Positions 12,913 to 56,651 are shown, counted from the first letter of the stretch. The stretch: 64,000 nt of DNA from a virus (IMGVR_UViG_2974696732_000001); one strand, 5' to 3'. Numbers and translations: made by a program. Notes: generated from the sequence alone by a model not told the origin.

Positions 12913-12999
12913 GTGGGTCGAAAGAGACATCGGTTATCTTTCAATAATGGTGAATACGCTCCGATAGGGGCTCTCCGATTCTCACCAACTTATCCACAC
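12913..12999 (+). ncRNA. noncanonical tRNA-like element (family A: GTGGGTCGAAAGAG..CGGTTATC..tail CTCACCAACTTATCCACAC)
   Basis: 5'/3' long-range complementarity TGTGG-GTCGAAAGAG with CTCTCCGA..CCACA. It does not fold as a tRNA. Sits directly upstream of tRNA-Gly. Confidence 0.3.
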
Positions 13000-13002
13000 T
13001 CT

Positions 13003-13073
13003 GCATCGGTAGTTTAATGGTAGAACGTCTGACTTCCAATCAGACAGCGCGGGTTCGATTCCCGCTCGGTGCT
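13003..13073 (+). tRNA. tRNA-Gly(TCC)
   Basis: Acceptor GCATCGG/TCGGTGC, anticodon loop CTTCCAA, T-arm GCGGGTTCGATTCCCGC. Confidence 0.8.
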
Positions 13074-13080
13074 CTCTCAT

Positions 13081-13154
13081 TCCCCCGTGGTCCGTGTGGC
13101 TGGCCACTGAGACTCTGAATCTCAGGTACGTAGGTTCGACTCCTGCCGGGGGAG
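13081..13154 (+). tRNA. tRNA-Gln(CTG)
   Basis: Acceptor TCCCCCG/CGGGGGA, anticodon loop CTCTGAA, T-arm GTAGGTTCGACTCCTGC. Confidence 0.7.
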
Positions 13155-13242
13155 CTGTGAAGGTGAGCAGGTCGCAATACTAGTTAGTGTAATCGCCCCC
13201 TGCGTAAATAAATGGGGTCGTTCATAATCTCCTTCACTTCAT

Positions 13243-13315
13243 GCATCCTTAGTGTAATGGTTTAGCACACGAGCTTCCAAACCTCTTAGAGTGGGTTCGA
13301 TTCCTACAGGATGTG
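13243..13315 (+). tRNA. tRNA (anticodon CCA, Trp?)
   Basis: Acceptor, D and T arms fold. The anticodon stem is weak, loop TTCCAAA. Confidence 0.5.
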
Positions 13316-13516
13316 CTTTGACGAATCTCGCCTTAGCAGATTGAAAAATGGTGGTCAGCATAAACCATTGAGTAAATCCGAGAGAACTATCAAAAGACAA
13401 AGGCCATGCTGAGGTCTGTCGAGTAGAGAAGTAGGGGATAAGGTCCCGAATGGCGTCAAAACCAATTAAAATAGCCCCCGGCAATGTCCGGGGGCACAAT
13501 CATATCTGGAGGAAAT

Positions 13517-13969
13517 GTGGGATACTACACTGACTTTACGCTAAGTGCTGAGGGTCGTGGCCCAATCTACGATAAGATGATGAAGCAGAAGGATAAGATT
13601 GTTTTCTCACAGGGAGACTACGATTTCATCCTCGGAGAGTGGCTTGACAGAGGCTACTCCCAGAACCTAAAGTGGTATGACTGGGAGAAGGACATGAAGC
13701 AGCTTTCCCGCGAATGGCCAAACGTTCTCTTTATCCTTGAGGGTGATGGAGAAGAGACCGGTGACCTCTGGAAGGCATGGTTCCGAAATGGAGAAATGCA
13801 CAAGCTAGAGGCCAAGATTGTCTTTGAGACAATCAAGCCTGACCTAGACAAGCACCTTCCATACGACAAAGACCTTGACAAGCGTCTGGGTGAACAGTAC
13901 AAGAAGGAACTTGCAGCCGAAATCGCCAAGCTACAGGCTCAGCTTGACGAACTAAGCCAGGAGGAGTAA
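13517..13969 (+). CDS. hypothetical protein
   Basis: ORF 13484.. trimmed to GTG 13517 with a GGAGGA RBS. The ATG at 13484 lies inside a hairpin. Confidence 0.45.
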   Translation: MGYYTDFTLSAEGRGPIYDKMMKQKDKIVFSQGDYDFILGEWLDRGYSQNLKWYDWEKDMKQLSREWPNVLFILEGDGEETGDLWKAWFRNGEMHKLEAKIVFETIKPDLDKHLPYDKDLDKRLGEQYKKELAAEIAKLQAQLDELSQEE

Positions 13970-14128
13970 AGTGGCTCTTACAGGCAACAAAGGACAGTGT
14001 TGGTTCCAAAGATGTTCTCGTAAGGCGACGACGACAATCAGGTACTACAACAAGTCAGTCGTTGTCTGTGATGGACACAAGAACCTTGATGGTGTAGGCT
14101 GTCCATCAAGTAGGCGGAGACCAAAGAG

Positions 14129-14157
14129 TTGACACTACTCAGAGGGTCTGCTAAGAT
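14129..14157 (+). promoter_or_regulatory. sigma70-like promoter TTGACA-N17-TAAGAT
   Basis: Upstream of the tRNA block at 14185. Confidence 0.5.
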
Positions 14158-14184
14158 TAAGTACAACGGCAGGGAAACCTGCTA

Positions 14185-14257
14185 TCAGGCACGGGGAAGA
14201 TGGTAATCCGTTGGCTTTGGAAGCCTAAGAAACTCGGTTCGATTCCGAGGTGCCTGA
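14185..14257 (+). tRNA. tRNA-like (TGG loop, imperfect stems; possible degenerate Pro copy)
   Basis: Acceptor TCAGGCA/TGCCTGA perfect, T-arm CTCGGTTCGATTCCGAG. The D and anticodon stems are imperfect. Confidence 0.45.
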
Positions 14258-14336: not shown

Positions 14337-14338
14337 CT

Positions 14339-14416
14339 AGCCCCATAGGATAATGACTAATCCGCCTGTACGTGGAGTACAGGTAATACCGGTTAAATTC
14401 CGGACTAGGGGCTCCA
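14339..14416 (+). ncRNA. tRNA-like element with atypical T-loop (TTAAATT) and encoded CCA
   Basis: Acceptor-like AGCCCC/GGGGCT-CCA, hairpins CCTGTAC..GTACAGG and CCGG-TTAAATT-CCGG. Confidence 0.3.
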
Positions 14417-14421
14417 AACTT

Positions 14422-14485
14422 TTGGGTCGATTGAGACACGGTTATCTTACACAATGGATACTAGGTTCGATTCCTAGGGGTGCCG
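14422..14485 (+). ncRNA. noncanonical tRNA-like element (family member B)
   Basis: GGGTCGATTGAGACACGGTTATCTT plus a perfect T-arm CTAGGTTCGATTCCTAG, with no matching acceptor. A tail motif lies at 14546-14570. Confidence 0.3.
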
Positions 14486-14584
14486 TAAAAAGCGCTCTGT
14501 AAAGTCATCTCAGATGTGTGTGGTAGGATGACATAAGGTACTACACTCTCTCCGTTCTCGCCACTTACCTAAAGGAACTTTCTT

Positions 14585-15106
14585 ATGACGGTACTTCTAC
14601 GGACAATCCACGGAAGCCATCTGTATGGCCTTGCGCACGCAGGTTCAGACCGAGACATTTACGAAGTAATTGCCACGAAGCGAACCAAGCGAAAGCGCAA
14701 CATTAAGCAGACCATCGTGAATGGAGTTGACAAGACGGTCGTTGACCTCTCAACATTCATGCATATGGTTAATGAATGCGTACCTCAAGCACTTGAAGCG
14801 CTATGGACGCCGGTAGCGGAAGTTGATAAACTTCACGAATTCCGGACACAATATCGAGTGAATCGCGCCAAGATGAAGGAAGTATACATTCGAACCGCTC
14901 TGAACTTCGCCAAGAACGATGGAGTAAAGCAAAAGCGTCACGCTATTCGCCTGCTTCTCAATCTCGGTGCAGCTCTGGAGTATGGTAAATTCAATCCCCA
15001 GCTTTCCAATATGGACAAGTTCATCATAAACTCTTCCATGGGTGAAACTGGAGCATACGAGGATGTCTTCCTAGGCGTCCTTGATGAAGTACAAAAGTGG
15101 GTCTGA
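14585..15106 (+). CDS. putative minimal nucleotidyltransferase (Pol-beta superfamily-like)
   Basis: HGSHLYGLAHAGSDRDIY resembles the GS-x9-13-D-x-D NTase motif. Confidence 0.4.
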   Translation: MTVLLRTIHGSHLYGLAHAGSDRDIYEVIATKRTKRKRNIKQTIVNGVDKTVVDLSTFMHMVNECVPQALEALWTPVAEVDKLHEFRTQYRVNRAKMKEVYIRTALNFAKNDGVKQKRHAIRLLLNLGAALEYGKFNPQLSNMDKFIINSSMGETGAYEDVFLGVLDEVQKWV

Positions 15107-15200
15107 TGGCTCACGCCAATGGGGCGTATACCCTCACTCTGATAAAGTGTAGAAAGGTTAATCGGTTACATGTGGGTTCAATTCCCACCGTCCCAACTGG
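15097..15200 (+). ncRNA. noncanonical tRNA-like element (family member)
   Basis: GTGGGTCTGA..AATCGGTTACA..T-arm GTGGGTTCAATTCCCAC. Overlaps the stop of the upstream gene. Confidence 0.3.
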
Positions 15201-17054: not shown

Positions 17055-17273
17055 ATGTGGACAGCGGGTGTAATCTTTTACCTCGCAGTCTGTGCGTACC
17101 TTTGCAAGAAGAAGGGGTGGCAGATTCACTACCTTCTTTGGGGAGCAGTTGGCGGGCTTATGCTTGCTACGCTGGTTCCTAGCTTGCCAGCGCAGACGAA
17201 GCAGACAATGGAAAACATGGGTAACGCTGTGGTCTCCATTGTTCAGAGTGCAGACATCGGTGGGCAGGGTTGA
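17055..17273 (+). CDS. small membrane protein (two TM helices)
   Basis: 72-aa hydrophobic ORF. Confidence 0.45.
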   Translation: MWTAGVIFYLAVCAYLCKKKGWQIHYLLWGAVGGLMLATLVPSLPAQTKQTMENMGNAVVSIVQSADIGGQG

Positions 17274-17298
17274 CAGTAACCCTGCTCCGCTGTAAGAT
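17270..17298 (+). promoter_or_regulatory. sigma70-like promoter TTGACA-N17-TAAGAT
   Basis: Upstream of tRNA-Ile(TAT). Confidence 0.5.
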
Positions 17299-17407: not shown

Positions 17408-17471
17408 GTGGGTCGAAGATGATTGTTTATCTTCAAATCAGCGTGTTGGGGGTTCGAATCCTCCCTGGGGA
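17408..17471 (+). ncRNA. noncanonical tRNA-like element (family member C; tail to about 17553)
   Basis: GTGGGTCGAAGAT, a 6-bp hairpin GAAGAT/ATCTTC and T-arm GGGGGTTCGAATCCTCC. No acceptor partner. Confidence 0.3.
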
Positions 17472-17579
17472 CTTTATTGTCCTCGGTAACTCAATGGCAG
17501 AGTAGCTGACATTGCCCGAATGGGCTAAACGATTGTCACGCCATATCCACATCATATAACTACTACTTAAGGACAAATA

Positions 17580-19024: not shown

Positions 19025-20977
19025 ATGGCTAATTCAACACCCTTGCTAGGAGCAGGAAATGTCACCACAGCAAGCAATTCAAATGCGACGTCTGTAACCG
19101 TCAACAAGCCAGCTAATCTGGCAGACGGTCATTACATGTTTGCAGCTATCCTTCAAAGGAATGCAGCCGGTACGTGGACTGTTCCTTCCGGCTGGACAGA
19201 AGTTGGCGTAACTCAGCAAGATTACGTTGACTGCAAGGTGTACTACAAGGCAGTCCCATCAGCGGCAGCAGAGTCCGCTTCAAACTATACCTGGACGACC
19301 AACAAGACGGCTGAGAGAATTGTAGCAATCCTATGGCTACAAACTAGCGTCAACGCTTCTCCAATTGACGCGCTGGGCTCTGGAACGGCCACAGCACCTA
19401 ATCGTACAAGCATGAACTTTGCATCCGTGACGGCAGTAAGCTCTCACGCTACCCTGATGACTATTGGATACAGCACTATTGCAGGTGGCTCTACTGCACC
19501 AGTCGGCTCCACTCCAAGTGGAATGACGGAGATTGCCAACGTCAATATTGCCAACTCTGTTCCAAATGCATTGAATCTCAAGGTAAGTTATCAGGTTCTC
19601 AATGTAACAGGAGCTACTGGCACAAGGGCGACCACTTTCTCCCCGGCCGCTTCTGGTTCTGGTGGATTCACGTTCACTATCAATCCAGCAGGAGACCCAC
19701 CACCAACTGTCATTGCATTGAGACAAGGGCTATGTGACAGGGACAAGGTACGTGTCCTCAGCAGGACAAGCTTTGCGACATCTGTCCGCCTGGCTGTCTC
19801 ATTGTCCAGTGACATGTCTTCACCTGTGTATTCATCCCCAGTGACACCAGACAGTGATGGTTATTCTAAACTAACTGTCACTGGTTTGTCACCAGACACC
19901 AAGTATTACTTCGCCCTGGAGATGAATGGTGTCATCGACATGTCACTGACAGGACAGACAAGGACATTCCCTGTGACGGGCTCTTTCAGCTTTCTTGCTG
20001 CGTCATGTTCATTCACTGCATCCAATCATGCAGTATTCGACGCAATGCGAACTCGCGTTGGTCCAGATGGATTGCCTGCAAGATTCTTTGCTCATCTTGG
20101 AGACGTTCATTATGAACACGCTAGCTATCAGCCTCAGCCAATCGCTCCAAATGACCCGGCAGAGCATCGTACAAATTATGAAAATAGTTTGATGACGGCC
20201 AGACAGTCTGCTCTTTGGCGCAATATTCCTGTGAGCCATACGTACTCAGACAATGATTTCTGTGGTAGTAACTCTGATAGCACATATGCTGCTCGTCCAG
20301 CTATCATTGCTGTTAGGCATCAGGTCATGATTGACCCGCCTCTTCCTGACTCTCAGGGAAATGGTCTTTGGCGAAGTTGGGTGGTTGGTCGAGTTCGTTT
20401 TATACAAACGGACAGCCGAACCTACATGAGCGCAAAGGGGTCTACAGACAATAGCTCTAAGACTATGCTGGGGGCAGAACAGAAAGCATGGCTCAAGAGT
20501 CAGCTTCTACAACCAGAGATTCTTAAGGTGTGGCTACATGACCAAGCGTGGGGAGGAATAGCAACAAATCCCGGCACAAATGATACTTGGCAGGCATTCA
20601 ATACTGAAAGAGTAGAGATAGGAAACTTCATTTCTACTAACAAGGTGAAGGTGGTTTACATTCATGGCGACAGCCATCGCCTTTCTGCTGATAACGGAAT
20701 TCTTAACACAAGAGGGGGATTCCCAACAATCTCTTGTGCTCCTATGGACCAATCAGCTCAAGGAGGAGATTCGTCAGGAGAAGCAAATTCAGCAGGAGTT
20801 TATCCTGCCTATGGAATAACACAACAAGGTAATCACTACGGATGGTTTGATGTTAATGACAATGGGTATCAGCTCTCTTTGACATTCAAGGGATACGATT
20901 CTGGAGGAACGCAAAGAGTCACCATGACAGTTACTGTCAGTCCTGAAACATCTACAGGCTGGGGCTACCCTCTCTAA
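19025..20977 (+). CDS. PhoD-like metallophosphatase with N-terminal Ig/FN3-like region
   Basis: GDVHYE, SDNDF and HGDSHR metallophosphatase motifs, with an N-terminal beta-rich region of about 230 aa. Confidence 0.55.
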   Translation: MANSTPLLGAGNVTTASNSNATSVTVNKPANLADGHYMFAAILQRNAAGTWTVPSGWTEVGVTQQDYVDCKVYYKAVPSAAAESASNYTWTTNKTAERIVAILWLQTSVNASPIDALGSGTATAPNRTSMNFASVTAVSSHATLMTIGYSTIAGGSTAPVGSTPSGMTEIANVNIANSVPNALNLKVSYQVLNVTGATGTRATTFSPAASGSGGFTFTINPAGDPPPTVIALRQGLCDRDKVRVLSRTSFATSVRLAVSLSSDMSSPVYSSPVTPDSDGYSKLTVTGLSPDTKYYFALEMNGVIDMSLTGQTRTFPVTGSFSFLAASCSFTASNHAVFDAMRTRVGPDGLPARFFAHLGDVHYEHASYQPQPIAPNDPAEHRTNYENSLMTARQSALWRNIPVSHTYSDNDFCGSNSDSTYAARPAIIAVRHQVMIDPPLPDSQGNGLWRSWVVGRVRFIQTDSRTYMSAKGSTDNSSKTMLGAEQKAWLKSQLLQPEILKVWLHDQAWGGIATNPGTNDTWQAFNTERVEIGNFISTNKVKVVYIHGDSHRLSADNGILNTRGGFPTISCAPMDQSAQGGDSSGEANSAGVYPAYGITQQGNHYGWFDVNDNGYQLSLTFKGYDSGGTQRVTMTVTVSPETSTGWGYPL

Positions 20978-21095
20978 GTTGACAGGTCTCCTTGAAGCTG
21001 CTACCGTAGAATTACACTAGAAAATATAAAGAAAAAGATGTTGAAAAACATCTAGAATTGGTTAGAAACCGGATAGTAATTAATTAGAAGGAAGT

Positions 21096-21383
21096 ATGAG
21101 ACTCTTTGAACTCCATAGAGACATCGATGAATCTGGTGTCTCTGGAACAGGAAAGGTCACTCAGGGAGTACAGTTTGACGATGGTCAGGTCTGTATGCTA
21201 TGGTTGACCGCATTGAAGGGGTATCCTCAAGTCTATCCACACATCGAACGAGTCCTTGAGATTCATGGACATGATGGTAAGACTCGTGTAGTATGGCTTG
21301 ATGAGAAGCCCGGCAGGACTGTGAAGGTTGCTGGTAAGGAAGTTCCAGTCCACACAGTTGACAGGTTCTCTGAGAACCGCTAA
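21096..21383 (+). CDS. hypothetical protein
   Basis: 95-aa ORF. Confidence 0.45.
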   Translation: MRLFELHRDIDESGVSGTGKVTQGVQFDDGQVCMLWLTALKGYPQVYPHIERVLEIHGHDGKTRVVWLDEKPGRTVKVAGKEVPVHTVDRFSENR

Positions 21384-21464
21384 AGTAGAACGTAGAGCAG
21401 GTCGGCAAGCAGGTAAGTGAGGAACACAGGAGCTTGAGCCACAACCCCTCCGCCTAGCTCTCTT

Positions 21465-21540
21465 GCGTCTGTAGTATAGTCTGGTCCAATGCACCTGATT
21501 GTCAATCAGGAAATCGCGGGTTCAAATCCCGTCAGGCGCG
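21465..21540 (+). tRNA. tRNA-Asp(GTC)
   Basis: Anticodon stem CCTGA/TCAGG with loop TTGTCAA, T-arm GCGGGTTCAAATCCCGT. Confidence 0.75.
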
Positions 21541-21570
21541 CTCCCAACAATCTCTTAGGAGAACAAGTAA

Positions 21571-21801
21571 ATGAAGTGGTACCGAGTTGTCCTCCAGTCT
21601 TGGCGTGGAAACTACAGGTCTGCCTACCATGGTGACCAGCATGGAACGTCTCTTGCTGATGCCAAGCGTCGGGTAGAACTTTCTTTTCAGCGAAATGGCT
21701 GGCTGGACGATGAAGTCACGAAGTTCAGCATTGAGCTGGAATTCGATGAGAAGCGTACGAAGCACTTTGACGACAATGACCTTTGGGGGCCTTATATCTG
21801 A
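21571..21801 (+). CDS. hypothetical protein
   Basis: 76-aa ORF. Confidence 0.45.
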   Translation: MKWYRVVLQSWRGNYRSAYHGDQHGTSLADAKRRVELSFQRNGWLDDEVTKFSIELEFDEKRTKHFDDNDLWGPYI

Positions 21802-21965
21802 TGACCATCAGATTTTGTCCATCATGTATGCAAAACGTAGTTACTCTGGTGCAGAAGGCAAACTGTAAGCACTGTGGTACAGTAACTAAGCCAGTAGATG
21901 AGAAACTTCCTTTGCCTGATGAGGGTGAGAGGAACGACCTTACTGGCAAGCACAAAAAGAAGTAA
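21801..21965 (+). CDS. zinc-ribbon protein
   Basis: CPSC..CKHC; ATGA overlap. Confidence 0.45.
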   Translation: MTIRFCPSCMQNVVTLVQKANCKHCGTVTKPVDEKLPLPDEGERNDLTGKHKKK

Positions 21966-21980
21966 GCCCTTCGGGGTTAT

Positions 21981-22051
21981 CCCGGCGTGGTGTAATGGTA
22001 ACATACTGCGTTGTCAGCGCAATGTCGAGGGTTCGATTCCCTTCGTCGGGA
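21981..22051 (+). tRNA. tRNA-Asp(GTC), second copy
   Basis: Acceptor CCCGGCG/CGTCGGG, anticodon loop TTGTCAG, T-arm GAGGGTTCGATTCCCTT. Confidence 0.65.
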
Positions 22052-22055
22052 CAAA

Positions 22056-22167
22056 GTGGGTCGAAAGAGCAAGTCGGTTATCATCCCTTGAAATGAATGA
22101 ATAGTAGGTTCGACTCCTACATTGGCCAGGGCTAGGCCACCTCCGACTCTCACCAACATATCCACCA
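22056..22167 (+). ncRNA. noncanonical tRNA-like element (family member D with tail CTCTCACCAACATATCCACCA)
   Basis: GTGGGTCGAAAGAGCAAGTCGGTTATC and T-arm GTAGGTTCGACTCCTAC. The 3' ATTGGCC finds no 5' partner. Confidence 0.3.
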
Positions 22168-22170
22168 ATT

Positions 22171-22500
22171 ATGAACACAGAAGAAAGAATTGAGAAGCTA
22201 AAGGAACTCTGGAAAGACGGCTGGTATCTTGAGGATGCCATCGGAGAAATCGAAGACCATCTTTCTGAGGATGAGTTCAAGCCAAAGCTGGTAGACTCCG
22301 TAGAGGAGCATGAGTCACGATGGATGATTCACACTCTTGACATCGCTGAGATTGACGAAGGTGTATACGTTGGTGTACGCTGGGAGCGAGGTAAGACAGA
22401 GATGCAAGAGCACATCTTCGATGACAAGAACGTTTATCTTCTCGAAAGAGTCGAGAAGGTTGTCACTACAGTCGATTGGAATGACAAGAAAAAGCTATGA
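22171..22500 (+). CDS. hypothetical protein
   Basis: 109-aa acidic ORF. Confidence 0.45.
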   Translation: MNTEERIEKLKELWKDGWYLEDAIGEIEDHLSEDEFKPKLVDSVEEHESRWMIHTLDIAEIDEGVYVGVRWERGKTEMQEHIFDDKNVYLLERVEKVVTTVDWNDKKKL

Positions 22501-22919
22501 GAAACTGGCTCGGTCATGAAATCGAGGTTGGCGCAGTAGTCTTTCGCGGCGGAAAGCAGGGCACATCGTCCTCTTTCCGCGTCGGCGTTGTAGACGACAT
22601 TGACGAACAGAAGCAGAATGCCCGTGTTGTCTGGCATTGGGTTCCAAGTAATAGAACTATTTGGGATAAGGACCAGTATCAGTATTCACACATGGACGAC
22701 AATCGCTACTACGTCTCTGGACCTGCAAAGGCCAGCACTCAACGAACTCGCTACCCTATCAATGACCTTGCGAGGCTTGATGACGGTATGCTAGAGTACC
22801 TACAGAAGCGATACCAGCTCATCGAGGCTGCTATCCACTACAAGATTCGTGAAGAAGACTTTGCTCAATTCGAGCGAGACTTTGATATGGGACTAGTTCC
22901 CGAAATTCCTATGCCTTAG
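22497..22919 (+). CDS. hypothetical protein
   Basis: 140-aa ORF. Confidence 0.45.
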   Translation: MRNWLGHEIEVGAVVFRGGKQGTSSSFRVGVVDDIDEQKQNARVVWHWVPSNRTIWDKDQYQYSHMDDNRYYVSGPAKASTQRTRYPINDLARLDDGMLEYLQKRYQLIEAAIHYKIREEDFAQFERDFDMGLVPEIPMP

Positions 22920-22936
22920 AAAGGGCCGGTAGTAAA

Positions 22937-24580
22937 ATGTCTAATGCACTTAACAACGCAGCTAAGGGTCTCAACAAGACTCCTCAGTCTGTCAAGGCCA
23001 AGGCAGGACAGGTCAAGAACAACGCTGGTGGATTCGTCTTCCAGGTTTCTGACCAGGCTCGCCTTGAGCGATTCCTTATCCTTGGTGTTGATGGTGGAAC
23101 CTATTACGTAAAGGAAGCCGACCACGCGCGTTCCAACGTACAGTTCCTCAATGACATGATTGAGCGAGACGAAGCCTCTGTACTGAACACAATCGTTGAT
23201 GTATCTGTCAATGGTCGTGCGTACAAGCAGTCTCCAGTCCTGTTCGCACTAGCCTCTGTCATTGTCCACGGACGTGACAAGCAGTCCGTCAAGGCTGTAT
23301 TTAATCGTGTTGTTCGTACTGGTACACACCTCTACGAGGTTGTGAACTACCTGAACACCATGGGTGGATGGGGTCGAGCAAAGCGTGAAATCGTTGCTAG
23401 TTGGTTCGAGCGCGATGCCGATAAGCTTGCTTACCAGATGGTCAAGTACCGTTCTCGTGAGTTTGCTGGCAACCGTTGGACCATGCGTGACGTAATGCGC
23501 AAGGCTCACCCACAGAACATGAACACTTCCGCTGCTGACTTTGCCCTCGGCAAGGAGCACGATGCTGTTGATGACCTTCGGGTTATTGAGGGTTTCAAGC
23601 TCATGCAGAAAGCTCAGTCTGTTGAAGACGTGCACAATGTTCTTCGGGCGTACGAGATGCTTCCTTGGGAGACTATCCCAACTCAGTTCCTCAAGGATTT
23701 GAGTGTCTGGAAGCGAATCTTCGCCAACGGTCAGCTTCGTGGTCAGGCTCTTGTCCGAAACATCACCCGTCTCGCACGGCTTGGTGCTTTCCAGGACATG
23801 CGTTTTGCTGCTGCTTATGCAGGACAGCTCACGAATCAGGAGATGATTGCGCAGACTCGTCTGCACCCAATCAACTTCCTGAACGCGACTGTTGTGTATA
23901 ACGATGGTCAGCTAAAGCGTGCCAAGGACCGCTGGGGCTACGAGAGTGAGCAGCGCGTAAAGGATTGGACGACTGAAAGTGTCATTGTCGATGCTCTCGA
24001 TGAGGGTTTCCACAAGGCATTCAAGACCGTCCAGCCTGCCGGTAAGCGAACGATGCTTGCTATTGATGTGTCAGGTTCCATGAGTGCAAAGGCTAACGGT
24101 CTCGACCTTAGCTGTGCTCAGGTTTCTGCTGCAATGGCAATGACCATCGCTCGTACCGAGCCAGCTCACATCATCCGTGGATTCACGTCTGATGGCTATG
24201 GTTGGAGGAACAGTGGTCTGACTGACCTCGGCATCTCCGCTCGTACAAACCTTGCTACGGCAATGCGTAATGTACAGCGAAGCAACTGGGGCGGCACAGA
24301 TTGTTCCCTCCCAATGCGTTGGGCTCTTGAGAACAAGGTAGAGGTTGACACCTTCGTGGTTATCACTGATAACGACACGTGGGCTGGCGACGTTCACCCA
24401 TTCCAGGCGCTCAAGGAGTACCGTAAGAAGACCGGAATCGACGCTCGCATGGCAGTTCTGGGAGTTCAGGCAACTGAATTCACCATCGCTGACCCAAGCG
24501 ACCGTGGAATGATGGACTTCGTAGGGTTTGACAGCAATGCACCTCGTGTGCTCGCTGACTTCTCCGCAGGTCGCATCTGA
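22937..24580 (+). CDS. rsr: Ro60/Rsr-like ribonucleoprotein (TROVE domain + vWA)
   Basis: 547 aa with an N-terminal TROVE-like region and a C-terminal vWA MIDAS motif AIDVSGSMS, matching the Ro60 architecture. Confidence 0.65.
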   Translation: MSNALNNAAKGLNKTPQSVKAKAGQVKNNAGGFVFQVSDQARLERFLILGVDGGTYYVKEADHARSNVQFLNDMIERDEASVLNTIVDVSVNGRAYKQSPVLFALASVIVHGRDKQSVKAVFNRVVRTGTHLYEVVNYLNTMGGWGRAKREIVASWFERDADKLAYQMVKYRSREFAGNRWTMRDVMRKAHPQNMNTSAADFALGKEHDAVDDLRVIEGFKLMQKAQSVEDVHNVLRAYEMLPWETIPTQFLKDLSVWKRIFANGQLRGQALVRNITRLARLGAFQDMRFAAAYAGQLTNQEMIAQTRLHPINFLNATVVYNDGQLKRAKDRWGYESEQRVKDWTTESVIVDALDEGFHKAFKTVQPAGKRTMLAIDVSGSMSAKANGLDLSCAQVSAAMAMTIARTEPAHIIRGFTSDGYGWRNSGLTDLGISARTNLATAMRNVQRSNWGGTDCSLPMRWALENKVEVDTFVVITDNDTWAGDVHPFQALKEYRKKTGIDARMAVLGVQATEFTIADPSDRGMMDFVGFDSNAPRVLADFSAGRI

Positions 24581-24614
24581 CAACAACCCCTCTTCGGAGG
24601 GGTTTTGTTGTTTA
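24581..24614 (+). terminator. rho-independent terminator after the Ro60-like gene
   Basis: CAACAACCCCTC-TTCG-GAGGGGTTTTGTTG + TTTAT. Confidence 0.65.
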
Positions 24615-24766
24615 TGATACGATTAATAGATGATATCTAAAGAAGAAAGAAAACAACTAAAGCTAGCAAGGTCAAAAGCAGAACTAGTAAGAACCGTGGC
24701 AGCACTATTTCAAATGGTGATGGCTACCGCAACTCTCTGCATCCTAGTCTACGTAAACTTCATGCG

Positions 24767-24795
24767 TTGACAGGACGCTCGGCAGGGTGTAGAGT
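24767..24795 (+). promoter_or_regulatory. promoter TTGACA-N17-TAGAGT
   Basis: Consensus family member. The HNH gene ATG follows 8 nt after the -10, so the mRNA is near-leaderless. Confidence 0.55.
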
Positions 24796-24802
24796 CTTAC
24801 TC

Positions 24803-25183
24803 ATGGGAACGAAGATTTCTATCGAAGAACTGTACGAACGTGACAAGGGTATGTGCGGCATCTGTGGAAATCGCGTGACTCGCAAGCAGCTCATCAAGGG
24901 CCTTGCAAATCGTGACCACATCGTTCCAGCCTCTCTAGGCGGAACGAATCACCGCAGCAATCTACGTCTTGCTCACTATTGGTGCAATATTCGACGTGGC
25001 AATGACCTTCCTAATAATGGACAGCCTTCTCATGATGAAAAGATGCTGACGGCATTTGAGAATCAAGAGGGTTTGTGTCCTCTGTGTGACGAAGCCCTTG
25101 CTCTTGATAGGAAGGCAGAGGGTTTTATTCGCCAGAAGGATTTGGCTCATCGAGTCTGCATCCGTCGTGATAGAGGGATGTAA
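24803..25183 (+). CDS. HNH endonuclease
   Basis: DHIVPASLGGTNHRSNLRLAHYWCN. ATG 24803 lies just downstream of the promoter -10 at 24790. Confidence 0.7.
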   Translation: MGTKISIEELYERDKGMCGICGNRVTRKQLIKGLANRDHIVPASLGGTNHRSNLRLAHYWCNIRRGNDLPNNGQPSHDEKMLTAFENQEGLCPLCDEALALDRKAEGFIRQKDLAHRVCIRRDRGM

Positions 25184-26492: not shown

Positions 26493-26500
26493 GGAGATAA

Positions 26501-27160: not shown

Positions 27161-27161
27161 C

Positions 27162-42455: not shown

Positions 42456-42457
42456 GA

Positions 42458-43336: not shown

Positions 43337-44434
43337 ATGAAGTTCACCAAGATTTTCTCTCAGGACTTGCTTGACCAGATGGTCAACGAGGGTTTTGTTC
43401 GGGTGCAGACTCATCCGGTTCTCCCTCTGCGAATTCTGAACTACTCTGAGAAGGCTCAGTTTGCGGGTCGATGGAACGCCTGCACGCTTGCGTGCCGTGG
43501 TCTCATCATCGACCAGGACGACAATGTAATTGCTCGTCCTTTCGAGAAGTTCTTCAACATGGGGGACTCTCACGCTGCTGACATCGACTGGGATGCTCCG
43601 GTTGAGGTGACGGACAAGAAGGATGGCTCCATGGGCATCCTTTACTCGATTCGTCCTTACAACCCTGACATGCCGCCTTACGGTCACGAGTACAGCTTTG
43701 CTACCCGTGGTAGTTTTGCTTCTGACCAGGCAATTCACGCTACTAAGCTTTGGCTTGAGCGTTACAAGAACACTGCCGTGCCTCATGACTGGACGTTCAT
43801 TTTCGAGATTGTCTACCCTGACAACCGAATCGTCCTGGATTACGGAGACATGGACGACCTTATCCTTCTGGGTGCGGTCAACAAGGAGCACGGTTACGTG
43901 TACGGTCCTCGTGAGGCTGCGGCTTTGCTGGATTGGCAGGGGCCGGTAACCGAGGTGTTCGATTACAAGAACATTCACGAGGCTGTTGGTGCACCTTACC
44001 GCAGCAACGCTGAGGGTCTTGTTATTCGTTCTGGTGGCAAGATGGTCAAGCTCAAGCAGGCTGATTACATTGAGCTTCATCGACTCATTTCAATGCTTTC
44101 AGAGCGCTCTGTATGGAGTCAGCTCACTGAGGGCAAGACGATTCTGGAGATTTGTGAGGCTCTGCCTGACGAGTTTCACCAGTTCGTCAAGGATGTCGGT
44201 GGCAAGTTGCTCAGTGACTTCGAGCGCATTGAGATTGAGGTGCGTGGAATCTTCCACAACCTTCTTTCTTCAATGGACGAGGGGTTCACTCGACGCGATT
44301 TCGCAATGAAGGCCAACGGAGTTGACCACTACCGCAGCCACATGTTCAACCTGCTTGACGGGAAGGACATCAGTGAGCTAATCTGGAAGCAGTTGAAGCC
44401 CGCAGCCAAGAGTGAGGATGGATACCCGCAGTGA
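43337..44434 (+). CDS. RNA ligase, T4 Rnl1-like
   Basis: ACRGLII and EKFFNMGD match the Rnl1 N-terminal region. Motif I is KKDGSMG (the KxDG lysine adenylylation site). Confidence 0.75.
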   Translation: MKFTKIFSQDLLDQMVNEGFVRVQTHPVLPLRILNYSEKAQFAGRWNACTLACRGLIIDQDDNVIARPFEKFFNMGDSHAADIDWDAPVEVTDKKDGSMGILYSIRPYNPDMPPYGHEYSFATRGSFASDQAIHATKLWLERYKNTAVPHDWTFIFEIVYPDNRIVLDYGDMDDLILLGAVNKEHGYVYGPREAAALLDWQGPVTEVFDYKNIHEAVGAPYRSNAEGLVIRSGGKMVKLKQADYIELHRLISMLSERSVWSQLTEGKTILEICEALPDEFHQFVKDVGGKLLSDFERIEIEVRGIFHNLLSSMDEGFTRRDFAMKANGVDHYRSHMFNLLDGKDISELIWKQLKPAAKSEDGYPQ

Positions 44435-45092: not shown

Positions 45093-45121
45093 TTGACACC
45101 ATCCTGGGCATCGACTAGAGT
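45093..45121 (+). promoter_or_regulatory. promoter TTGACA-N17-TAGAGT (pnk)
   Basis: GGGGTTGACACC..TAGAGTAGAGC, consensus family. Confidence 0.6.
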
Positions 45122-45149
45122 AGAGCTAACAACAACGAAGGGAAACAAG

Positions 45150-46055
45150 ATGGCTCAGCTTCTCATCCTCCGGGGCGTTCCTGGATGTGGAAAGTCCACT
45201 TTCGCTCACCAGTGGCTCAAGGAAGGTGAGCGGCGTGCTCGTGTAAACCGTGACGACATCCGTATGCAGTTCTTCGGTAAGGAGACTGGTGTGGATGAAG
45301 ACATGGTTACCAAGATTGAGCACCAGCAGGTAGACATGCTTCTCAAGTCTGGATACTCTGTGGTTGTCGATGACACCAACATCAGGTTCCAGTACATCAC
45401 AGCTTTCGTTAAGATTGCTGCGAAGCATGGCGTGCCTGTTGCAGTAAAGCAGTTCGATGTGGACCTCAAGACTGCCATTGAGCGCAATGCACACCGTGCT
45501 TCTCAGGGTGGTCGTGATGTCCCTACGCACGTCATCGAGAGGATGCACAAGTCTCTCAAGTCTTCTGGTCAGTACACTCGGAAGCACATCGAAGATGCTT
45601 GGGGAACTTCTCAGTCTGTGCAGCCTTACGTTCGGCCAGTAGGCAAGCGAAAGGTTTACCTCTTTGACATTGATGGCACTCTTGCCCAGATGTCTGACAG
45701 GTCTCCTTTTGAGTGGAACAAGGTTGGCAATGACGACCCCCGTCGTCAGGTTGTTCTGACTGCTCAGGCGCTTGCTGAGGCGGGCTACGAGATTGTTGTA
45801 ATGAGCGGTCGAGACTCTGTCTGCCGTGATGAGACAATTGCGTGGCTGGAGTTCTATGACATCCCCTTTGTTGACCTCTTCATGAGGGCAGAGGGTGACA
45901 TGCGTAAGGACAACATCGTTAAGCAGGAGCTGTTTGACAAGCACATTCGTGACTTCTACGATGTTGTGGCCGTCTTTGACGACCGGCAGCAAGTGGTTGA
46001 CATGTGGCGTGCGATGGGCGTAGACTGCTTCCAGGTCGCGCCTGGAGATTTCTGA
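45150..46055 (+). CDS. pnk: polynucleotide 5'-kinase/3'-phosphatase (T4 Pnk-like)
   Basis: P-loop GVPGCGKST kinase plus a HAD phosphatase DIDGTLA..SGR. Start trimmed to ATG 45150, downstream of the promoter at 45093-45121. Confidence 0.8.
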   Translation: MAQLLILRGVPGCGKSTFAHQWLKEGERRARVNRDDIRMQFFGKETGVDEDMVTKIEHQQVDMLLKSGYSVVVDDTNIRFQYITAFVKIAAKHGVPVAVKQFDVDLKTAIERNAHRASQGGRDVPTHVIERMHKSLKSSGQYTRKHIEDAWGTSQSVQPYVRPVGKRKVYLFDIDGTLAQMSDRSPFEWNKVGNDDPRRQVVLTAQALAEAGYEIVVMSGRDSVCRDETIAWLEFYDIPFVDLFMRAEGDMRKDNIVKQELFDKHIRDFYDVVAVFDDRQQVVDMWRAMGVDCFQVAPGDF

Positions 46056-54843: not shown

Positions 54844-54931
54844 CCTCCGCTTCATAATCAAGTCTGTGTTACTCTTTTAGAGAATTCTTCAAGAATGCGC
54901 AGACTTGAGGAGAAGGAGGTGAAATCAAAAA

Positions 54932-55288
54932 ATGGCAGAATACAAGTACGAGCCAAAGACTTCTCAGGACGTTGTTGCTCCACACCTTGACCCACTAGCG
55001 GACGAGGATGCAAAGCGTGCTGAGGATGCAGGCGTAAAGGACTCAGCTTTTGTTGACTATGAGGCTGCTCTAGAGAATTACCAGAGCCGTTCAGACGTAG
55101 AGACTCTAGCTGCCCGTCGTGCCCGTGAGGGTGGATGGAAGTTCGAAGACGCTGCATTCCGTCGTTCTGCAAAGGACGATGAGCTAACCGGTGGTGGTGT
55201 TGTCACCTCTGACCAGGCAACCGATAAGGCACCTGAACAGCAGAAGGAAGTAAAGGACACCGCAACCGCACGCAAGTCAAGCAAGTAA
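54932..55288 (+). CDS. hypothetical acidic protein
   Basis: 118-aa ORF. Confidence 0.45.
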   Translation: MAEYKYEPKTSQDVVAPHLDPLADEDAKRAEDAGVKDSAFVDYEAALENYQSRSDVETLAARRAREGGWKFEDAAFRRSAKDDELTGGGVVTSDQATDKAPEQQKEVKDTATARKSSK

Positions 55289-55307
55289 GCATAGACTTAA
55301 TAATTGA

Positions 55308-55337
55308 ACAGGGAGGTTAATAGCCTCCCTGTTCTGT
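55308..55337 (+). terminator. rho-independent terminator
   Basis: ACAGGGAGG-TTAATAG-CCTCCCTGT + TCTG. Confidence 0.6.
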
Positions 55338-55368
55338 CATCAGCAAAACAAGAAAAGAGAAAGCGATT

Positions 55369-55608
55369 ATGTCTGTTGTTCTAGACTACAACTCAGTGGA
55401 CCAGTTCGTTGAATCTCAGCAGAAGGCTGGGAATGATGTACGCTGGGAGGGCTGGGACCTGGTGTTTTTCCGTAAGAGCAAGAATCAGTCCGGTTGGTCA
55501 AAGCGTGACGGTGCTTACCGTAACGCCAACTGGGGATTCCAGACTCGCATTGCGGTTGGCAACGATGGAAAGTGGAGGGTTCCTAACCGTAATGTCAAGC
55601 ATTCTTGA
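55369..55608 (+). CDS. hypothetical protein
   Basis: 79-aa ORF. Confidence 0.4.
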   Translation: MSVVLDYNSVDQFVESQQKAGNDVRWEGWDLVFFRKSKNQSGWSKRDGAYRNANWGFQTRIAVGNDGKWRVPNRNVKHS

Positions 55609-55900
55609 GCAAAGGGGCATAAGTCCAGAGGAAGTGGAGTGGGAAGACCTGGCTTTGTGTCGTGGTCTTCCCACTTCTTTCTTCTTTGAGACTTACGAGC
55701 AGGACAAAATTTCTGCTCGGTATGTAGATGAGATGTGCCTTCGCTGTCCTGTCATGAAGCAGTGTGCAATGGCAGCCAAGGATAACAATGGCTTTGGAGT
55801 ATGGGGCGGCGTTTATTGGAATGGCGCTAAGGTAGATACCTACCGCAATGCTCATAAAACTCCAGAGGTATGGAAGAGAATCAAGGAGAGATTGTCGTGA
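55592..55900 (+). CDS. whiB: WhiB-like (Wbl) Fe-S transcription factor
   Basis: Cys pattern LALCRG..CLRCPVMKQC plus GVWGG, the actinobacterial WhiB signature. Trimmed from track ORF 55409... Confidence 0.7.
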   Translation: MSSILEQRGISPEEVEWEDLALCRGLPTSFFFETYEQDKISARYVDEMCLRCPVMKQCAMAAKDNNGFGVWGGVYWNGAKVDTYRNAHKTPEVWKRIKERLS

Positions 55901-56205
55901 GTGTAGAGAACGCATACGCTCTCTTGCAGGTAGAGAACGTCAGGAAGGCGTTCAGGGAATTCAAGTTTGAACCTGGTACAGGATTCACCTGCGACCTTGT
56001 ACAATACCCTGCAACGCAGCACGACGTTCCCAACTTCGCACTATGGGCATACAAGAACACCTTCGACAATCTTACTGAGCACCAAAAGCTGCTCATCACT
56101 GAACAGATAAGTCGTCTGATTCAATTGATTCGTTCCCTTGGTGTAAACTGTATATTGGAGGTCCATGATGCACCGGGAAAGTCAGGTAGTACGAGTAGAA
56201 ACTGA
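55897..56205 (+). CDS. hypothetical protein
   Basis: GTG start overlapping the whiB stop. Confidence 0.4.
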   Translation: MSVENAYALLQVENVRKAFREFKFEPGTGFTCDLVQYPATQHDVPNFALWAYKNTFDNLTEHQKLLITEQISRLIQLIRSLGVNCILEVHDAPGKSGSTSRN

Positions 56206-56350
56206 CGAAGGTCTTGCCTTTGGAATAATCAAAGAAGTCCTGGCGTTCCATTGTAAGGTTGATTACTTCATCAATGGAAGCTGGGACAGTGATTATTTCG
56301 AGCATGATGATGTCGAAGTCATTGGCGAAATAGGATATGAGGTAGAGTGA
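56165..56350 (+). CDS. hypothetical protein
   Basis: 61-aa ORF. Confidence 0.35.
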   Translation: MMHRESQVVRVETDEGLAFGIIKEVLAFHCKVDYFINGSWDSDYFEHDDVEVIGEIGYEVE

Positions 56351-56577
56351 GAGAACTAGTTTGTGATAGCTGTGGGGGTCAGAGGTTCAGCCTAACCTCT
56401 GTGCAGTCAAAACTACTCGAAACCATGACCTTCAATCTATGTAATGATTGTAAGGATGATGGCAAGGAGCCGCGTTGGCTCATCGTTTTGGCGGCTCGGA
56501 ACGGTCAGGATGTGAATCACTGGCTTTCAAACCAGCTATACGAGGGAACAGAAATCAAGCAGGAGGATTTGAATTAA
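56347..56577 (+). CDS. zinc-ribbon protein
   Basis: CDSCGG..CNDC. Confidence 0.4.
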   Translation: MRELVCDSCGGQRFSLTSVQSKLLETMTFNLCNDCKDDGKEPRWLIVLAARNGQDVNHWLSNQLYEGTEIKQEDLN

Positions 56578-56583
56578 GCCTCC

Positions 56584-56651
56584 AGGCCGGGTATACTAGG
56601 CACATCTAGGGAACTATGGGGTTCGAATCCCTACCGGCCGCAATAAATCCC
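56584..56651 (+). ncRNA. armless tRNA-like element (acceptor + one hairpin + T-arm)
   Basis: GGCCGG/CCGGCC stem, CTAG..CTAG hairpin and T-arm TGGGGTTCGAATCCCTA. 32 nt precede the T-stem, too few for a tRNA. Confidence 0.3.

Follow-up and report, generated by a model that had tools for sequence, protein, structure and literature searches.

Y RNAs adjoining a phage Ro60 gene have already been described, in 2014 and again in 2025. For bacteria, the reference is the YrlA/YrlB class of Salmonella Typhimurium, Mycobacterium smegmatis and mycobacteriophages (Chen et al. 2014, PMC4201824; Rfam RF02553), in which the Rsr-binding motif GNCGAAN0-1G lies near the 5' end, YUAY marks the start of the variable loop, and proximity to Ro60 means within 4 kb of it (PMC4201824). 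In Salmonella and M. smegmatis, the 5' strand alone of the Ro-binding helix is recognisable (Chen et al., PMC4201824). Thermus phage phiLo encodes two Y-like RNAs, Yrl1 and Yrl2, upstream of a phage Ro60 (NAR 2025, PMC12135203); they were recognised by a 5'-3' stem around an internal bulge with CGAA (that is, a stem-bulge-stem), they bind the phage Ro60, and ternary complexes with the host PNPase have been assembled in vitro (PMC12135203).

We analysed a 64,000-nucleotide stretch of Streptomyces phage Paradiddles (the window; record position equals window position plus 58707) and consider it very likely that four of its loci, numbered Y RNA 1 to 4 in Table 1, are genes for Y RNAs, the class bound by Ro60/Rsr. 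They are interspersed in the phage tRNA cluster and are unannotated as small-RNA genes; they would add members to a known RNA class and do not constitute a new kind of element. Like YrlA/YrlB, they have a 5' GNCGAAN0-1G and a YUAY that opens the variable loop, and they lie in several copies per genome on the Ro60 strand, upstream of Ro60. Y RNA 3 orders T arm, acceptor-like hairpin and D arm as YrlA does, and Y RNA 1 recalls YrlB as the shorter partner without a full tRNA domain. In contrast to YrlA/YrlB, the Ro-binding helix in Paradiddles is recognisable on both strands (GGGU-C-G / U-AUCC), the terminal stem is short, at 6 bp and one G.U pair, and the genes alternate with tRNA genes along 10 kb, where those of YrlA/YrlB form a tandem no more than 4 kb from Ro60. 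Unlike in YrlA, the tRNA-like domain is partial in two copies, and the Rfam score falls under the gathering threshold. As for phiLo, its Ro60-Yrl-PNPase complex is the mechanism that we propose for Paradiddles; phiLo belongs to a different host lineage and has two copies with no tRNA-like domain described, whereas Paradiddles has four, three of them with T arms.

More distant likenesses also exist. The ends of metazoan Y RNAs and of Deinococcus radiodurans Yrn1 form a bulged helix in which an unpaired C is followed by a G.U pair (GGUCCGA / UUGACC in vertebrates, GGGUCGA / UAUCC in Paradiddles), and the loops of human Y1 and Y4 start with GGUUAUC, as the Paradiddles loop does. However, metazoan Y RNAs have no tRNA-like module and the T and D arms of Yrn1 are ordered differently; the likeness consists of short motifs only and therefore does not show common descent. 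With canonical tRNAs, t-elements and mascRNA-type minihelices, the Paradiddles loci share the perfect T arm (GGUUCGANUCC, 5-bp stem) and the tRNA-operon setting, and Y RNA 3 has a D arm and an acceptor-like helix as tRNAs do. Unlike tRNAs, the four loci have no anticodon arm (neither ARAGORN nor the Rfam tRNA model found a complete cloverleaf there), the acceptor-like helix is a closed hairpin, and the RNA ends are predicted to build the Ro-binding stem.

Four candidate Y RNA genes and their Ro60 linkage

Table 1. Coordinates of the features discussed, in window positions.
Feature	Position	Strand	Remarks
Promoter-like site	12877..12905	+	TTGACA-17-TAAAGT, TG upstream; predicted start ~12912-12913
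Candidate Y RNA 1	12913..12997	+	85 nt, YrlB-like
Promoter-like site	14129..14157	+	TTGACA-17-TAAGAT; heads two tRNA-Pro, cloverleaf-like element, Y RNA 2
Cloverleaf-like element	14338-14415		Between tRNA-Pro pair and Y RNA 2
Candidate Y RNA 2	14422..14572	+	151 nt; stem extendable to 14419-14575
RlaP-like nucleotidyltransferase gene	14585..15106	+	RNA-repair-pathway Pol-beta family, PF10127
tRNA-Ile(GAU)-like gene	15120-15196		Conserved, without D arm
Promoter-like site	17270..17298	+	TTGACA-17-TAAGAT; heads tRNA-Ile(tat), Y RNA 3
Candidate Y RNA 3	17408..17550	+	143 nt, YrlA-type
Promoter-like site	21358..21386	+	TTGACA-17-TAAAGT; upstream of two tRNA-Asp, Y RNA 4
Candidate Y RNA 4	22056..22165	+	110 nt
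Ro60/Rsr gene	22937..24580	+	TROVE and Ro60 vWA domains, PF05731, PF25045
tRNA	36489-36560		Rfam 32 bits; tRNA-Tyr in sister-phage annotation; holds 36539 motif
Orphan GGTTCGANTCC motifs	14464, 17451, 22107, 27987, 28528, 28790, 28823, 28877, 33901, 36539, 42476, 56620	+	

The original prediction of a phage Ro60/Rsr-like protein holds: judging from its two domains and its structure matches (2nvo Rsr, E 4e-99; Ro60 chains 9nen, E 1.5e-79, and 1yvp, E 8.6e-77), the gene product is a full-length Rsr homologue, and it is the presumed protein partner of the four Y RNAs. Partners of this kind had been proposed for at least 12 loci with a T arm; the proposal stands for the four, on the basis of the Rsr-binding motif, covarying helices and YUAY, and is not supported for the rest, in which every Y RNA hallmark is missing. 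A signature, GGGTCG-N8-20-TTATC, has four occurrences in the window, each on the + strand (12915, 14424, 17410 and 22058); the expected number is 0.21. When mismatches were tolerated but the 3' tail and complementary ends were demanded as well, a search of the window yielded these four loci and no others. With a 5'-motif profile built solely from distant phages, the four take ranks 1-4, at E-values that are weak (0.007-0.35), as expected for a motif of 25 nt.

A fifth proposed member of the shared-motif group, 15097, drops out. Its 'GTGGGTCTGA' closes the coding sequence of the upstream gene, and GGGTCTGA at 15097 includes the stop codon, TGA; no TTATC, tail or end pairing was found at this locus. 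The 27-nt 3' tail quoted for the group, starting CTCTCCGA, is complete at Y RNA 1 only: Y RNA 4 has it apart from the first two bases, here CCTCCGAC, and Y RNAs 2 and 3 keep just its last part, as CACTTACCTAA and CCATATCCAC, respectively.

Linkage to Ro60 extends well beyond Paradiddles. Across the window and 47 related loci, the signature matches 107 times, in 105 cases on the Ro60 strand. In distant phages, tandem arrays of four or five copies directly precede Ro60, at 0.3-2.6 kb, and the Chthonomonas, Poribacteria and Fimbriimonadia MAGs examined have one or two copies each, also upstream. Mycobacteriophage Dandelion has three tandem copies upstream of Ro60 in the same layout (stem / GNCGA / CGGUUAYC ... 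CACCAUGU / stem). In Paradiddles, Y RNAs 1-3 lie about 9.9, 8.4 and 5.4 kb upstream of Ro60 on the same strand, and only Y RNA 4, 772 nt upstream, is within 4 kb.

The immediate neighbours are tRNA genes. The start predicted for the first promoter-like site coincides with the first base of Y RNA 1, a 'taaatG' upstream of which is kept in orthologues, and the 3' end of this RNA is 5 nt ahead of tRNA-Gly (13003). Y RNA 3, a homologue of which is present in the related locus L026, begins 2 nt past the end of tRNA-Ile (17405), and Y RNA 4 begins 3 nt past tRNA-Asp (22052). Part of Y RNA 4 (22059-22128) is tRNA-Ser(tga) in GenBank. Neither ARAGORN, with introns allowed or not, nor the Rfam tRNA model makes a call at any of the four loci, and the GenBank tRNA-Ser is thus a misannotation.

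Architecture, covariation and match to published Y RNAs

In each of the four copies, a terminal stem is formed by NN-GGGU pairing with AUCC-NN, followed by an unpaired C and a G.U pair, which places G-U-C-G-A-A-(N)-G in an internal loop. The GNCGAAN0-1G motif reads GUCGAAAG in Y RNAs 1 and 4 (12917 and 22060) and GUCGAAG in Y RNA 3 (17412); Y RNA 2 has GUCGAUUG (14426), one mismatch, and its orthologues carry GUCGAAAG or GUCGAAUG. Helix 2 comes next, 8-11 bp whose sequence varies among copies with pairing always kept, and it opens into a variable module at a conserved UUAUC (YUAY), which is invariant in 4/4 window copies and in 52 distinct copies in related loci. It is the module that differs. 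Y RNA 3, with an 11-bp helix 2, has a full tRNA-like domain (T arm, an 8-bp acceptor-like hairpin and a D arm, ACUCAAUGGCAGAGU). Y RNA 2 has a similar domain in which a long D-like hairpin with a GUGGUAG loop follows the T arm and acceptor-like hairpin, and Y RNA 4, with helix 2 GAG..UCGG/CCGA..CUC, has a T arm and one hairpin, without a D arm. Y RNA 1 has a plain loop with a small hairpin; the T arm once assigned to it is absent, as is any tRNA-like domain. Its helix 2 (GAGAcAUCGG/CCGAUUCUC) covaries, with GAAAGUUGG/CCGACUUUC in the related locus L003.

In 69/87 sites, we found Watson-Crick complementarity between the dinucleotide that precedes GGGU and the one that follows the first tail motif (permuted mean 27.4, permuted maximum 44), with eight pair types among the terminal dinucleotides of the tested sites. 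The duplex that helix 2 forms with its own partner averages -9.2 kcal/mol, against a mean of -5.4 and a best permutation of -6.2 for permuted partners. For this energy test and the terminal pair counts, elements were picked partly by requiring terminal pairing; the 69/87 complementarity test alone is free of that selection. Alignments of orthologues contain 5 compensatory pairs of 22 for Y RNA 4 and 6 of 35 predicted pairs for Y RNA 2, and the YrlA-type alignment (the type of Y RNA 3), which took in phages with Ro60 43-62% identical, contains 10 of 23 and recovers the T and D arms. The covariation named earlier as a check is seen in the terminal stem and helix 2 of the Y loci, and 15097 is without end pairing.

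The motifs agree with published GNCGAAN0-1G and YUAY and with the CGAA stem-bulge-stem of phiLo, and the predicted sizes (Table 1) fit the 80-150 nt range of Y RNAs. The Rfam YrlA model (RF02553), proposed earlier as a check, gave a divided answer in a local search. Y RNA 3 aligns end to end, at 34.8 bits and E 2e-6, and this full-length alignment places T arm, acceptor-like hairpin and D arm in the YrlA order; Y RNAs 1, 2 and 4 have no match, and the gathering score of 69 is reached by none of the four. Nor is this peculiar to Paradiddles: a Y RNA upstream of Ro60 in a mycobacteriophage, whose genus is listed among reported Y RNA hosts (PMC12135203), has merely 36.1 bits, and six other Ro60 phage loci have nothing at the Rfam YrlA threshold, which therefore excludes phage members generally.

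Proposed mechanism and alternative explanations

By analogy with other systems, from which the effector and the biological role are taken, we posit that the terminal stem and loop would dock onto the outer surface of the phage Ro60 ring, and that the variable module would recruit or gate another factor. In Deinococcus and Salmonella, the factor recruited by the Y RNA module is polynucleotide phosphorylase. As in the family at large, the Ro60-Y RNA particle might then handle structured or damaged RNA during infection. The gene layout further suggests that the Y RNAs would be co-transcribed with neighbouring tRNAs from the TTGACA-17-TAAAGT/TAAGAT promoters, the first copy starting at the predicted transcription start, and that RNase P and 3'-end processing, in maturing these tRNAs, may also free the Y RNAs, since three copies have a tRNA gene 2-5 nt away. 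Directly downstream of Y RNA 2 is the RlaP-like gene (PF10127, E 8e-6; 26.1 bits, cutoff 23), and the phage further encodes an Rnl1-like RNA ligase and Pnkp. This set of genes echoes the bacterial rsr-yrlBA-rtcBA repair operon and points to quality control of tRNA or RNA as a possible role.

Could the four loci instead be decayed tRNA genes or duplication debris, without a function of their own, in a fast-evolving tRNA array? They do lie within a dense array in which atypical tRNA-like loci occur, three have perfect T arms, and a GenBank tRNA-Ser covers part of one. However, the conserved parts (GGGUCGAA, UUAUC and the CAAYWUAUCC tail) are not tRNA parts, one copy is wholly without a T arm, compensatory changes keep the terminal stem and helix 2 paired between phages in which Ro60 is only 43-62% identical, and the copies follow the Ro60 gene and strand in 105/107 cases; we regard decay as extremely improbable. 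The copy without a T arm would also go unexplained, together with the conserved Ro-binding motif and tail and the strict association with the Ro60 gene across phages and bacteria, if the tRNA-like modules were processing punctuation (t-elements) that solely attracts RNase P/RNase Z to cut polycistronic tRNA/mRNA transcripts. The short distances to tRNA genes at three copies, the 8-bp acceptor-like hairpin of Y RNA 3, the intergenic position of the minihelices 33867-33990 and 56584-56640, and the cleavage of M. smegmatis YrlA by RNase P (PMC4201824) are consistent with punctuation, which as the sole function we consider very unlikely. Release of a Y RNA needs processing anyway, and the two readings are therefore not exclusive.

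There is a similarly slight chance that these are cis-acting leaders, Y RNA 2 for the RlaP-like nucleotidyltransferase and Y RNA 4 for two small ORFs and Ro60. In Y RNA 2, the 3' strand of the terminal stem enters the AAAGGA ribosome-binding region of the gene starting at 14585, and through this overlap the locus could also, or instead, be an mRNA leader; Y RNA 4 precedes the Ro60 operon, and no terminator-like site separates the two. Against this, tRNA genes follow Y RNA 1, the RNAs are built like trans-acting Y RNAs, and the copies in distant phages are in tandem and thus a poor fit with leaders.

The remaining T-arm loci

The T-arm motif GGTTCGANTCC occurs 38 times in the whole window, on the + strand only, where shuffles give 0.07 expected. 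ARAGORN predicts 42 tRNAs and one tmRNA, and 12 occurrences fall outside its tRNAs, the number previously given for loci; these 12 amount to 10 loci because the element at 28766-28899 alone carries three. One of the 12, the 36539 motif, sits within a tRNA. Resolution as ordinary tRNAs, which would have spoken against the original prediction, is clear for 36489-36560 and weak for 15120, 28421, 36661 and 42364. The orphan loci are a mixed set, not one family: besides the Y RNAs, it comprises minihelices, atypical tRNAs, tRNA-like RNAs that contain inserts, one tmRNA-like tRNA domain and one RNA with three T arms. The earlier description is confirmed for 28422-28549, with its 50-nt insertion, and for 28766-28899, where an 8-bp stem closes three T arms. 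The supposed minihelix at 42458 has a T-arm motif (42476) and actually belongs to a larger tRNA-like locus (42364-42497), of which it is the 3' part and which has a promoter-like site in a 60-nt insert. At 27932-28011, a tmRNA was considered and rejected; only the ends of the locus are tRNA-like, with G3:U70, A73 and a T arm, and the match has 34.7 bits where the gathering score is 47. Between the ends lies a 30-nt hairpin that contains no reading frame. RNase P/Z processing signals, the other earlier suggestion, are plausible for the minihelices 33867-33990 and 56584-56640, and such processing is compatible with the likely origin of the Y RNA ends.

We speculate, while thinking it rather unlikely, that the phage has a larger toolkit of tRNA-elbow mimics, adaptors or decoys acting with Ro60, of which the Y RNAs are just the members that can be recognised. 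Its members may include 28421-28550, which is tRNA-shaped with a Y-like GYCGAA module in place of the anticodon arm; 27932-28011, whose tmRNA-like tRNA domain bears the alanine identity pair; and 28766-28899. If such a toolkit exists, its partners would be Ro60, the RlaP-like nucleotidyltransferase, the RNA ligase and Pnkp, and its targets would be host tRNA-binding enzymes or tRNA-targeting defence nucleases.

Another phage (L039) has permuted tRNA-Y chimeras directly upstream of Ro60; such fusions therefore exist.

Four elements on a common plan

Four intergenic elements of this phage, Y1 to Y4, are in all likelihood Y RNAs, the presumed partners of its Ro60 homologue. When read as sequence, the loci at 12913, 14422, 17408 and 22056 have in common a 5' end (NN-GGGTCGA(A/T)...), an internal (C/T)G(G/T)TTATC and a 3' end (...CA(A/C)(C/T)(A/T)TA(T/C)C(C/T)-NN). 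The combination GGGTCG-N8-20-TTATC has exactly four matches in the 64 kb, on the + strand only, versus 0.21 expected, and a search allowing one mismatch per block and requiring the tail and end pairing recovered the same four loci only. A fifth locus that the original prediction had grouped with these by its ends, at 15097, was rejected as a family member: its GTGGGTCTGA closes the upstream coding sequence, and it has neither TTATC nor the tail.

Based on alignments and folding, all four RNAs can be drawn on one plan: a terminal stem of six pairs between the RNA ends (NN-GGGU with AUCC-NN); inward of it an unpaired C and then an invariant G.U pair; an internal loop with CGAA on the 5' side; helix 2, the second paired region, of 8-11 bp; and an invariant UUAUC, which opens a variable module that differs from copy to copy (see the table). 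The conserved TGGTAGGAT inside Y2 resembled an internal promoter, yet the promoter scan made no call there; it falls within a covarying hairpin, in the loop and the 3' side of the stem.

Bases 20000-30000 of the window are 100% identical to Streptomyces phage Paradiddles (MF347637.1 / NC_042010), so that record position equals window position plus 58707; the region is common to ~108 related Streptomyces phage records, and GC content is ~49% throughout the window. ARAGORN called 42 tRNAs and one tmRNA in the window, every one on the + strand. The T-arm motif GGTTCGANTCC occurs there 38 times, exclusively on the + strand, where chance would give 0.07. Twelve of these motifs lie outside ARAGORN genes (14464, 17451, 22107, 27987, 28528, 28790, 28823, 28877, 33901, 36539, 42476 and 56620), which bears out the raw observation, but they make ten loci, not at least twelve, because three of them share one element. 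The Rfam tRNA model reached threshold, weakly in every case, at 36489-36560, 36661-36731, 15120-15196 and 42364-42497, and was borderline at 28422-28549. At the level of sequence, the original observation is confirmed in part, and its interpretation is likewise supported in part.

Pairing beyond chance and likeness to known Y RNAs

The plan was examined in a comparison set of 43 IMG/VR loci around Ro60 homologues and four annotated phage regions, which yielded 107 signature matches (105 on the Ro60 strand) and 78 distinct copies. Choosing copies by end pairing would bias pairing counts; therefore, the test was made with the 3' end set by the tail motif alone. The two bases before GGGU and the two after the first tail motif were Watson-Crick complementary at 69 of 87 distinct sites, whereas permuted partners gave a mean of 27.4 and a maximum of 44 in 2000 trials; eight dinucleotide pair types occur at the terminal stem among these sites. 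Helix 2 is likewise diverse in sequence (e.g., GAGAcAUCGG/CCGAUUCUC, GAAUUCAG/CUGAAUUC and UUAGUUCGG/CCGAACUAA), and its mean duplex energy was -9.2 kcal/mol with its own partner versus -5.4 with permuted partners (best permuted, -6.2). RNAalifold found compensatory changes in 5/22, 6/35 and 10/23 pairs of three orthologue sets (22056, 14422 and YrlA-type, respectively). A MAFFT alignment of all full-length paralogues misaligned the 3' strand of helix 2, so no covariance model was built from it, and spliced-core and per-copy duplex tests were used instead; a profile restricted to the 3' tail was uninformative owing to its shortness.

Bacterial and phage Y RNAs have been defined by a 5' GNCGAAN0-1G that overlaps the Rsr-binding site, with a conserved YUAY opening the variable loop; the YrlA type carries a T arm, an acceptor-like stem-loop and a D arm (Chen et al. 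2014, PMC4201824). In Mycobacterium smegmatis YrlA, RNase P cuts within the acceptor-like hairpin. The copies at 12913, 14422, 17408 and 22056 read GUCGAAAG, GUCGAUUG, GUCGAAG and GUCGAAAG, each followed by UUAU, and so, as far as sequence goes, their features match the published definitions. In Thermus phage phiLo, Yrl1 and Yrl2 were identified in 2025 by a 5'-3' stem around a bulge with CGAA, and were shown to bind both the phage's Ro60 and the PNPase of the host (PMC12135203).

At Rfam gathering thresholds, no Y RNA family matched the window, and in E-value mode YrlA matched at 17408 only, where the model aligned over its whole length to 17422-17536 with 34.8 bits, below the gathering score of 69. 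This shortfall is uninformative, because in mycobacteriophage Dandelion, which belongs to a phage genus named among earlier-reported Y RNA hosts (PMC12135203), the YrlA that lies upstream of Ro60 scores just 36.1 bits, and six other Ro60 phage loci gave only tRNAs at threshold; the Rfam library is thus unusable as a negative test. Dandelion itself has three tandem RNAs on the same plan (e.g., GGGGAGGCAG-G-CCGAGAG..UCGGUUACC...CACCAUGU-CUGCCUCCCC). Directly upstream of Ro60, a relaxed scan found tandem copies in two further phage-like contigs (five and four, respectively) and one or two copies per metagenome-assembled genome (MAG) in Chthonomonas, Poribacteria and Fimbriimonadia (e.g., CACGGGCCGAAG...GGGUUAUC...CACUUGCCCGUG). 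A genome scan for Ro60 relatives returned only seven loci, no Streptomyces genome among them.

Gene arrangement and possible role

The product of 22937-24580 aligns end to end with Deinococcus radiodurans Rsr (E 4e-99) and also with Ro60 chains 9nen and 1yvp. Distant relatives (Ro60 54-62% identical) have four to five Y RNA copies at 0.3-2.6 kb upstream of the Ro60 gene. The four copies of Paradiddles and its close relatives are scattered among tRNA genes over a stretch of 10 kb. A similar promoter-like site is predicted upstream of each Y RNA unit, and we infer that the Y RNAs are co-transcribed with tRNAs and released by tRNA end processing. The four loci are unannotated intergenic DNA, apart from a GenBank tRNA-Ser(tga) label at 22059-22128 (MF347637.1 80766-80835) that covers the 5' two-thirds of Y4 and has no support from ARAGORN or Rfam.

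Features of the window
Feature	Position	Strand	Description
Y1	12913-12997	+	variable module: small hairpin alone; 5' end at predicted start of TTGACA-17-TAAAGT promoter, 3' end 5 nt before tRNA-Gly
Cloverleaf-shaped element	14338-14415	+	between tRNA-Pro and Y2; unusual T loop (CCGG-UUAAAUU-CCGG); 8-bp "anticodon" stem, 5-nt loop; MFE z-score -4.1; called by no tRNA finder
Y2	14422-14572	+	variable module: T arm, hairpin, long D-like hairpin with GUGGUAG loop
RlaP-like nucleotidyltransferase gene	14585-15106	+	PF10127; directly after Y2
tRNA-Ile(GAU)-like gene	15120-15196	+	conserved; no D arm
Y3	17408-17550	+	variable module: T arm, 8-bp acceptor-like hairpin, D arm; starts 2 nt after tRNA-Ile
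Y4	22056-22165	+	variable module: T arm and one hairpin; starts 3 nt after tRNA-Asp
Ro60 gene	22937-24580	+	gp120; TROVE and Ro60 vWA domains
80-nt element	27932-28011	+	7-bp acceptor stem, T arm; covarying hairpin with conserved 20-nt loop
tRNA-shaped element	28421-28550	+	covarying acceptor stem, conserved A1.G72 mismatch, D arm, T arm
Triple T-arm element	28766-28899	+	~135 nt; three perfect T arms inside one terminal stem
Structured spacer	33867-33990	+	conserved, between two tRNA-Lys genes
tRNA-Tyr	36489-36560	+	by annotation in sister phages
tRNA-His-like gene	36661-36731	+	
tRNA-like element	42364-42497	+	acceptor, 6-bp D arm, T arm; ~60-70-nt insert replaces anticodon arm
T4 Rnl1-like RNA ligase	43337-44434	+	
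Pnkp (polynucleotide kinase-phosphatase)	45093-46055	+	
Minihelix	56584-56640	+	acceptor-like stem, small hairpin, T arm; nearly invariant, unannotated, between two hypothetical ORFs

These comparisons establish the plan of the sequence, as well as its conservation and its link with Ro60. By analogy with Xenopus, Deinococcus, Salmonella and phiLo, we posit that the stem and loop would attach to the Ro60 ring on its outer face and that the variable module would tether or gate an effector such as PNPase. The region of Ro60 and the Y RNAs also encodes an RNA repair set (RlaP-like protein, ligase and Pnkp), which recalls the bacterial rsr-yrlBA-rtcBA repair operon; this context points to a possible role in quality control of RNA or tRNA during infection. 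Because the 3' strand of Y2 extends into the ribosome-binding site of the nucleotidyltransferase gene, that copy may have a role in cis.

Phage Y RNAs as such are not new. They have been described beside phage Ro60 genes since 2014 (PMC4201824), binding was demonstrated in 2025 (PMC12135203), and two to four per species is normal (PMC4201824, PMC12135203); thus, the Paradiddles set, judged by its sequences, adds further members to a known class. Earlier work listed 22 phages, and the open-access papers that we found contain no mention of Y RNAs in Streptomyces phages. Three minor points of sequence are new: the Ro-binding helix keeps both of its strands, the Y RNA genes are dispersed into tRNA operons, and the four copies form a graded series in their tRNA-like modules.

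Four intergenic elements, conserved but unannotated in a Streptomyces phage group with >100 sequenced genomes, thereby gain a probable function, and at least one false tRNA annotation, of a kind that inflates reported tRNA counts, is corrected. The simple search signature (stem / G-N-CG-R / helix / GGUUAYC ... tail / stem) works in phages and bacterial MAGs and picks up Y RNAs that stay below the threshold of the Rfam YrlA model. Paradiddles and Streptomyces griseus, which it infects, form a genetically tractable pair with four Y RNAs bearing graded tRNA-like modules, one phage Ro60 and the RNA repair set, a system that could help test the purpose of the Y RNA tRNA-like domain.

The remaining T-arm loci

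By sequence, the other T-arm loci are heterogeneous and lack the Y hallmarks. The tRNA-Ile(GAU)-like gene is the conserved part of the locus predicted at 15097; it has a long variable region with a conserved GG, its anticodon and acceptor stems covary across phages, and it scores 30.8 bits with the Rfam tRNA model, with no ARAGORN call. The element at 27932-28011 carries the alanine identity set, G3:U70 with discriminator A73. It is similar to the tRNA-like domain of the tmRNA that the phage itself encodes (39577-39845), and it matches the Rfam tmRNA model at the model's ends only (34.7 bits). At least 18 related loci conserve the element, and its acceptor stem shows a compensatory change.

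With introns allowed, ARAGORN reads 28421-28550 as a tRNA-Arg(gcg) containing a 34-nt intron. In place of an anticodon arm, the element has a long interrupted arm, in which GYCGAA and AGAUAWCAG flank a covarying hairpin of variable length. This layout is Y-like, and the element may be a fifth Y RNA, but a compensatory change in two sequences supports the register UGUC/GAUA and not the bulged-C register.

The proposal that 28766-28899 encloses three T arms in a terminal stem was borne out: the pairing is kept across phages despite replacement of the sequence (GGUGAAUA/UAUUCACC versus ACAGAG/CUCUGU). This element matches no Rfam family, is partly annotated as tRNA-Ser in phage Comrade and is patchily distributed, with 26 Streptomyces phage records and 96% identity in otherwise distant phages. 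The spacer at 33867-33990 combines a covarying hairpin, a 7-bp covarying stem (CACAUUG/CAAUGUG) around the T-arm hairpin and a further long-range helix. The insert of 42364-42497, an element 99% conserved in Samisti12, contains a strong promoter-like site (TTGACA-17-TAGGAT, 42427-42455). The minihelix at 56584-56640, found in 86 phage records, is a candidate RNase P/Z processing site; downstream of it, a CCCCU/GGGG hairpin abuts the ribosome-binding site of the next gene.

In another Ro60 phage locus (L039, IMG/VR contig 3300017527_000512, 9546-9905), two tRNA-like genes of 120-130 nt lie directly upstream of Ro60, with a circularly permuted Y RNA stem (..CACAUUACC-GCAA-GGUACGGAG..GAUUAUC..) as their anticodon arm. 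We found no earlier description of such a tRNA-Y chimera arrangement. Two simple Y RNAs come after the chimera genes. Based on these permuted genes, some of the other T-arm loci may also be Ro60 ligands.
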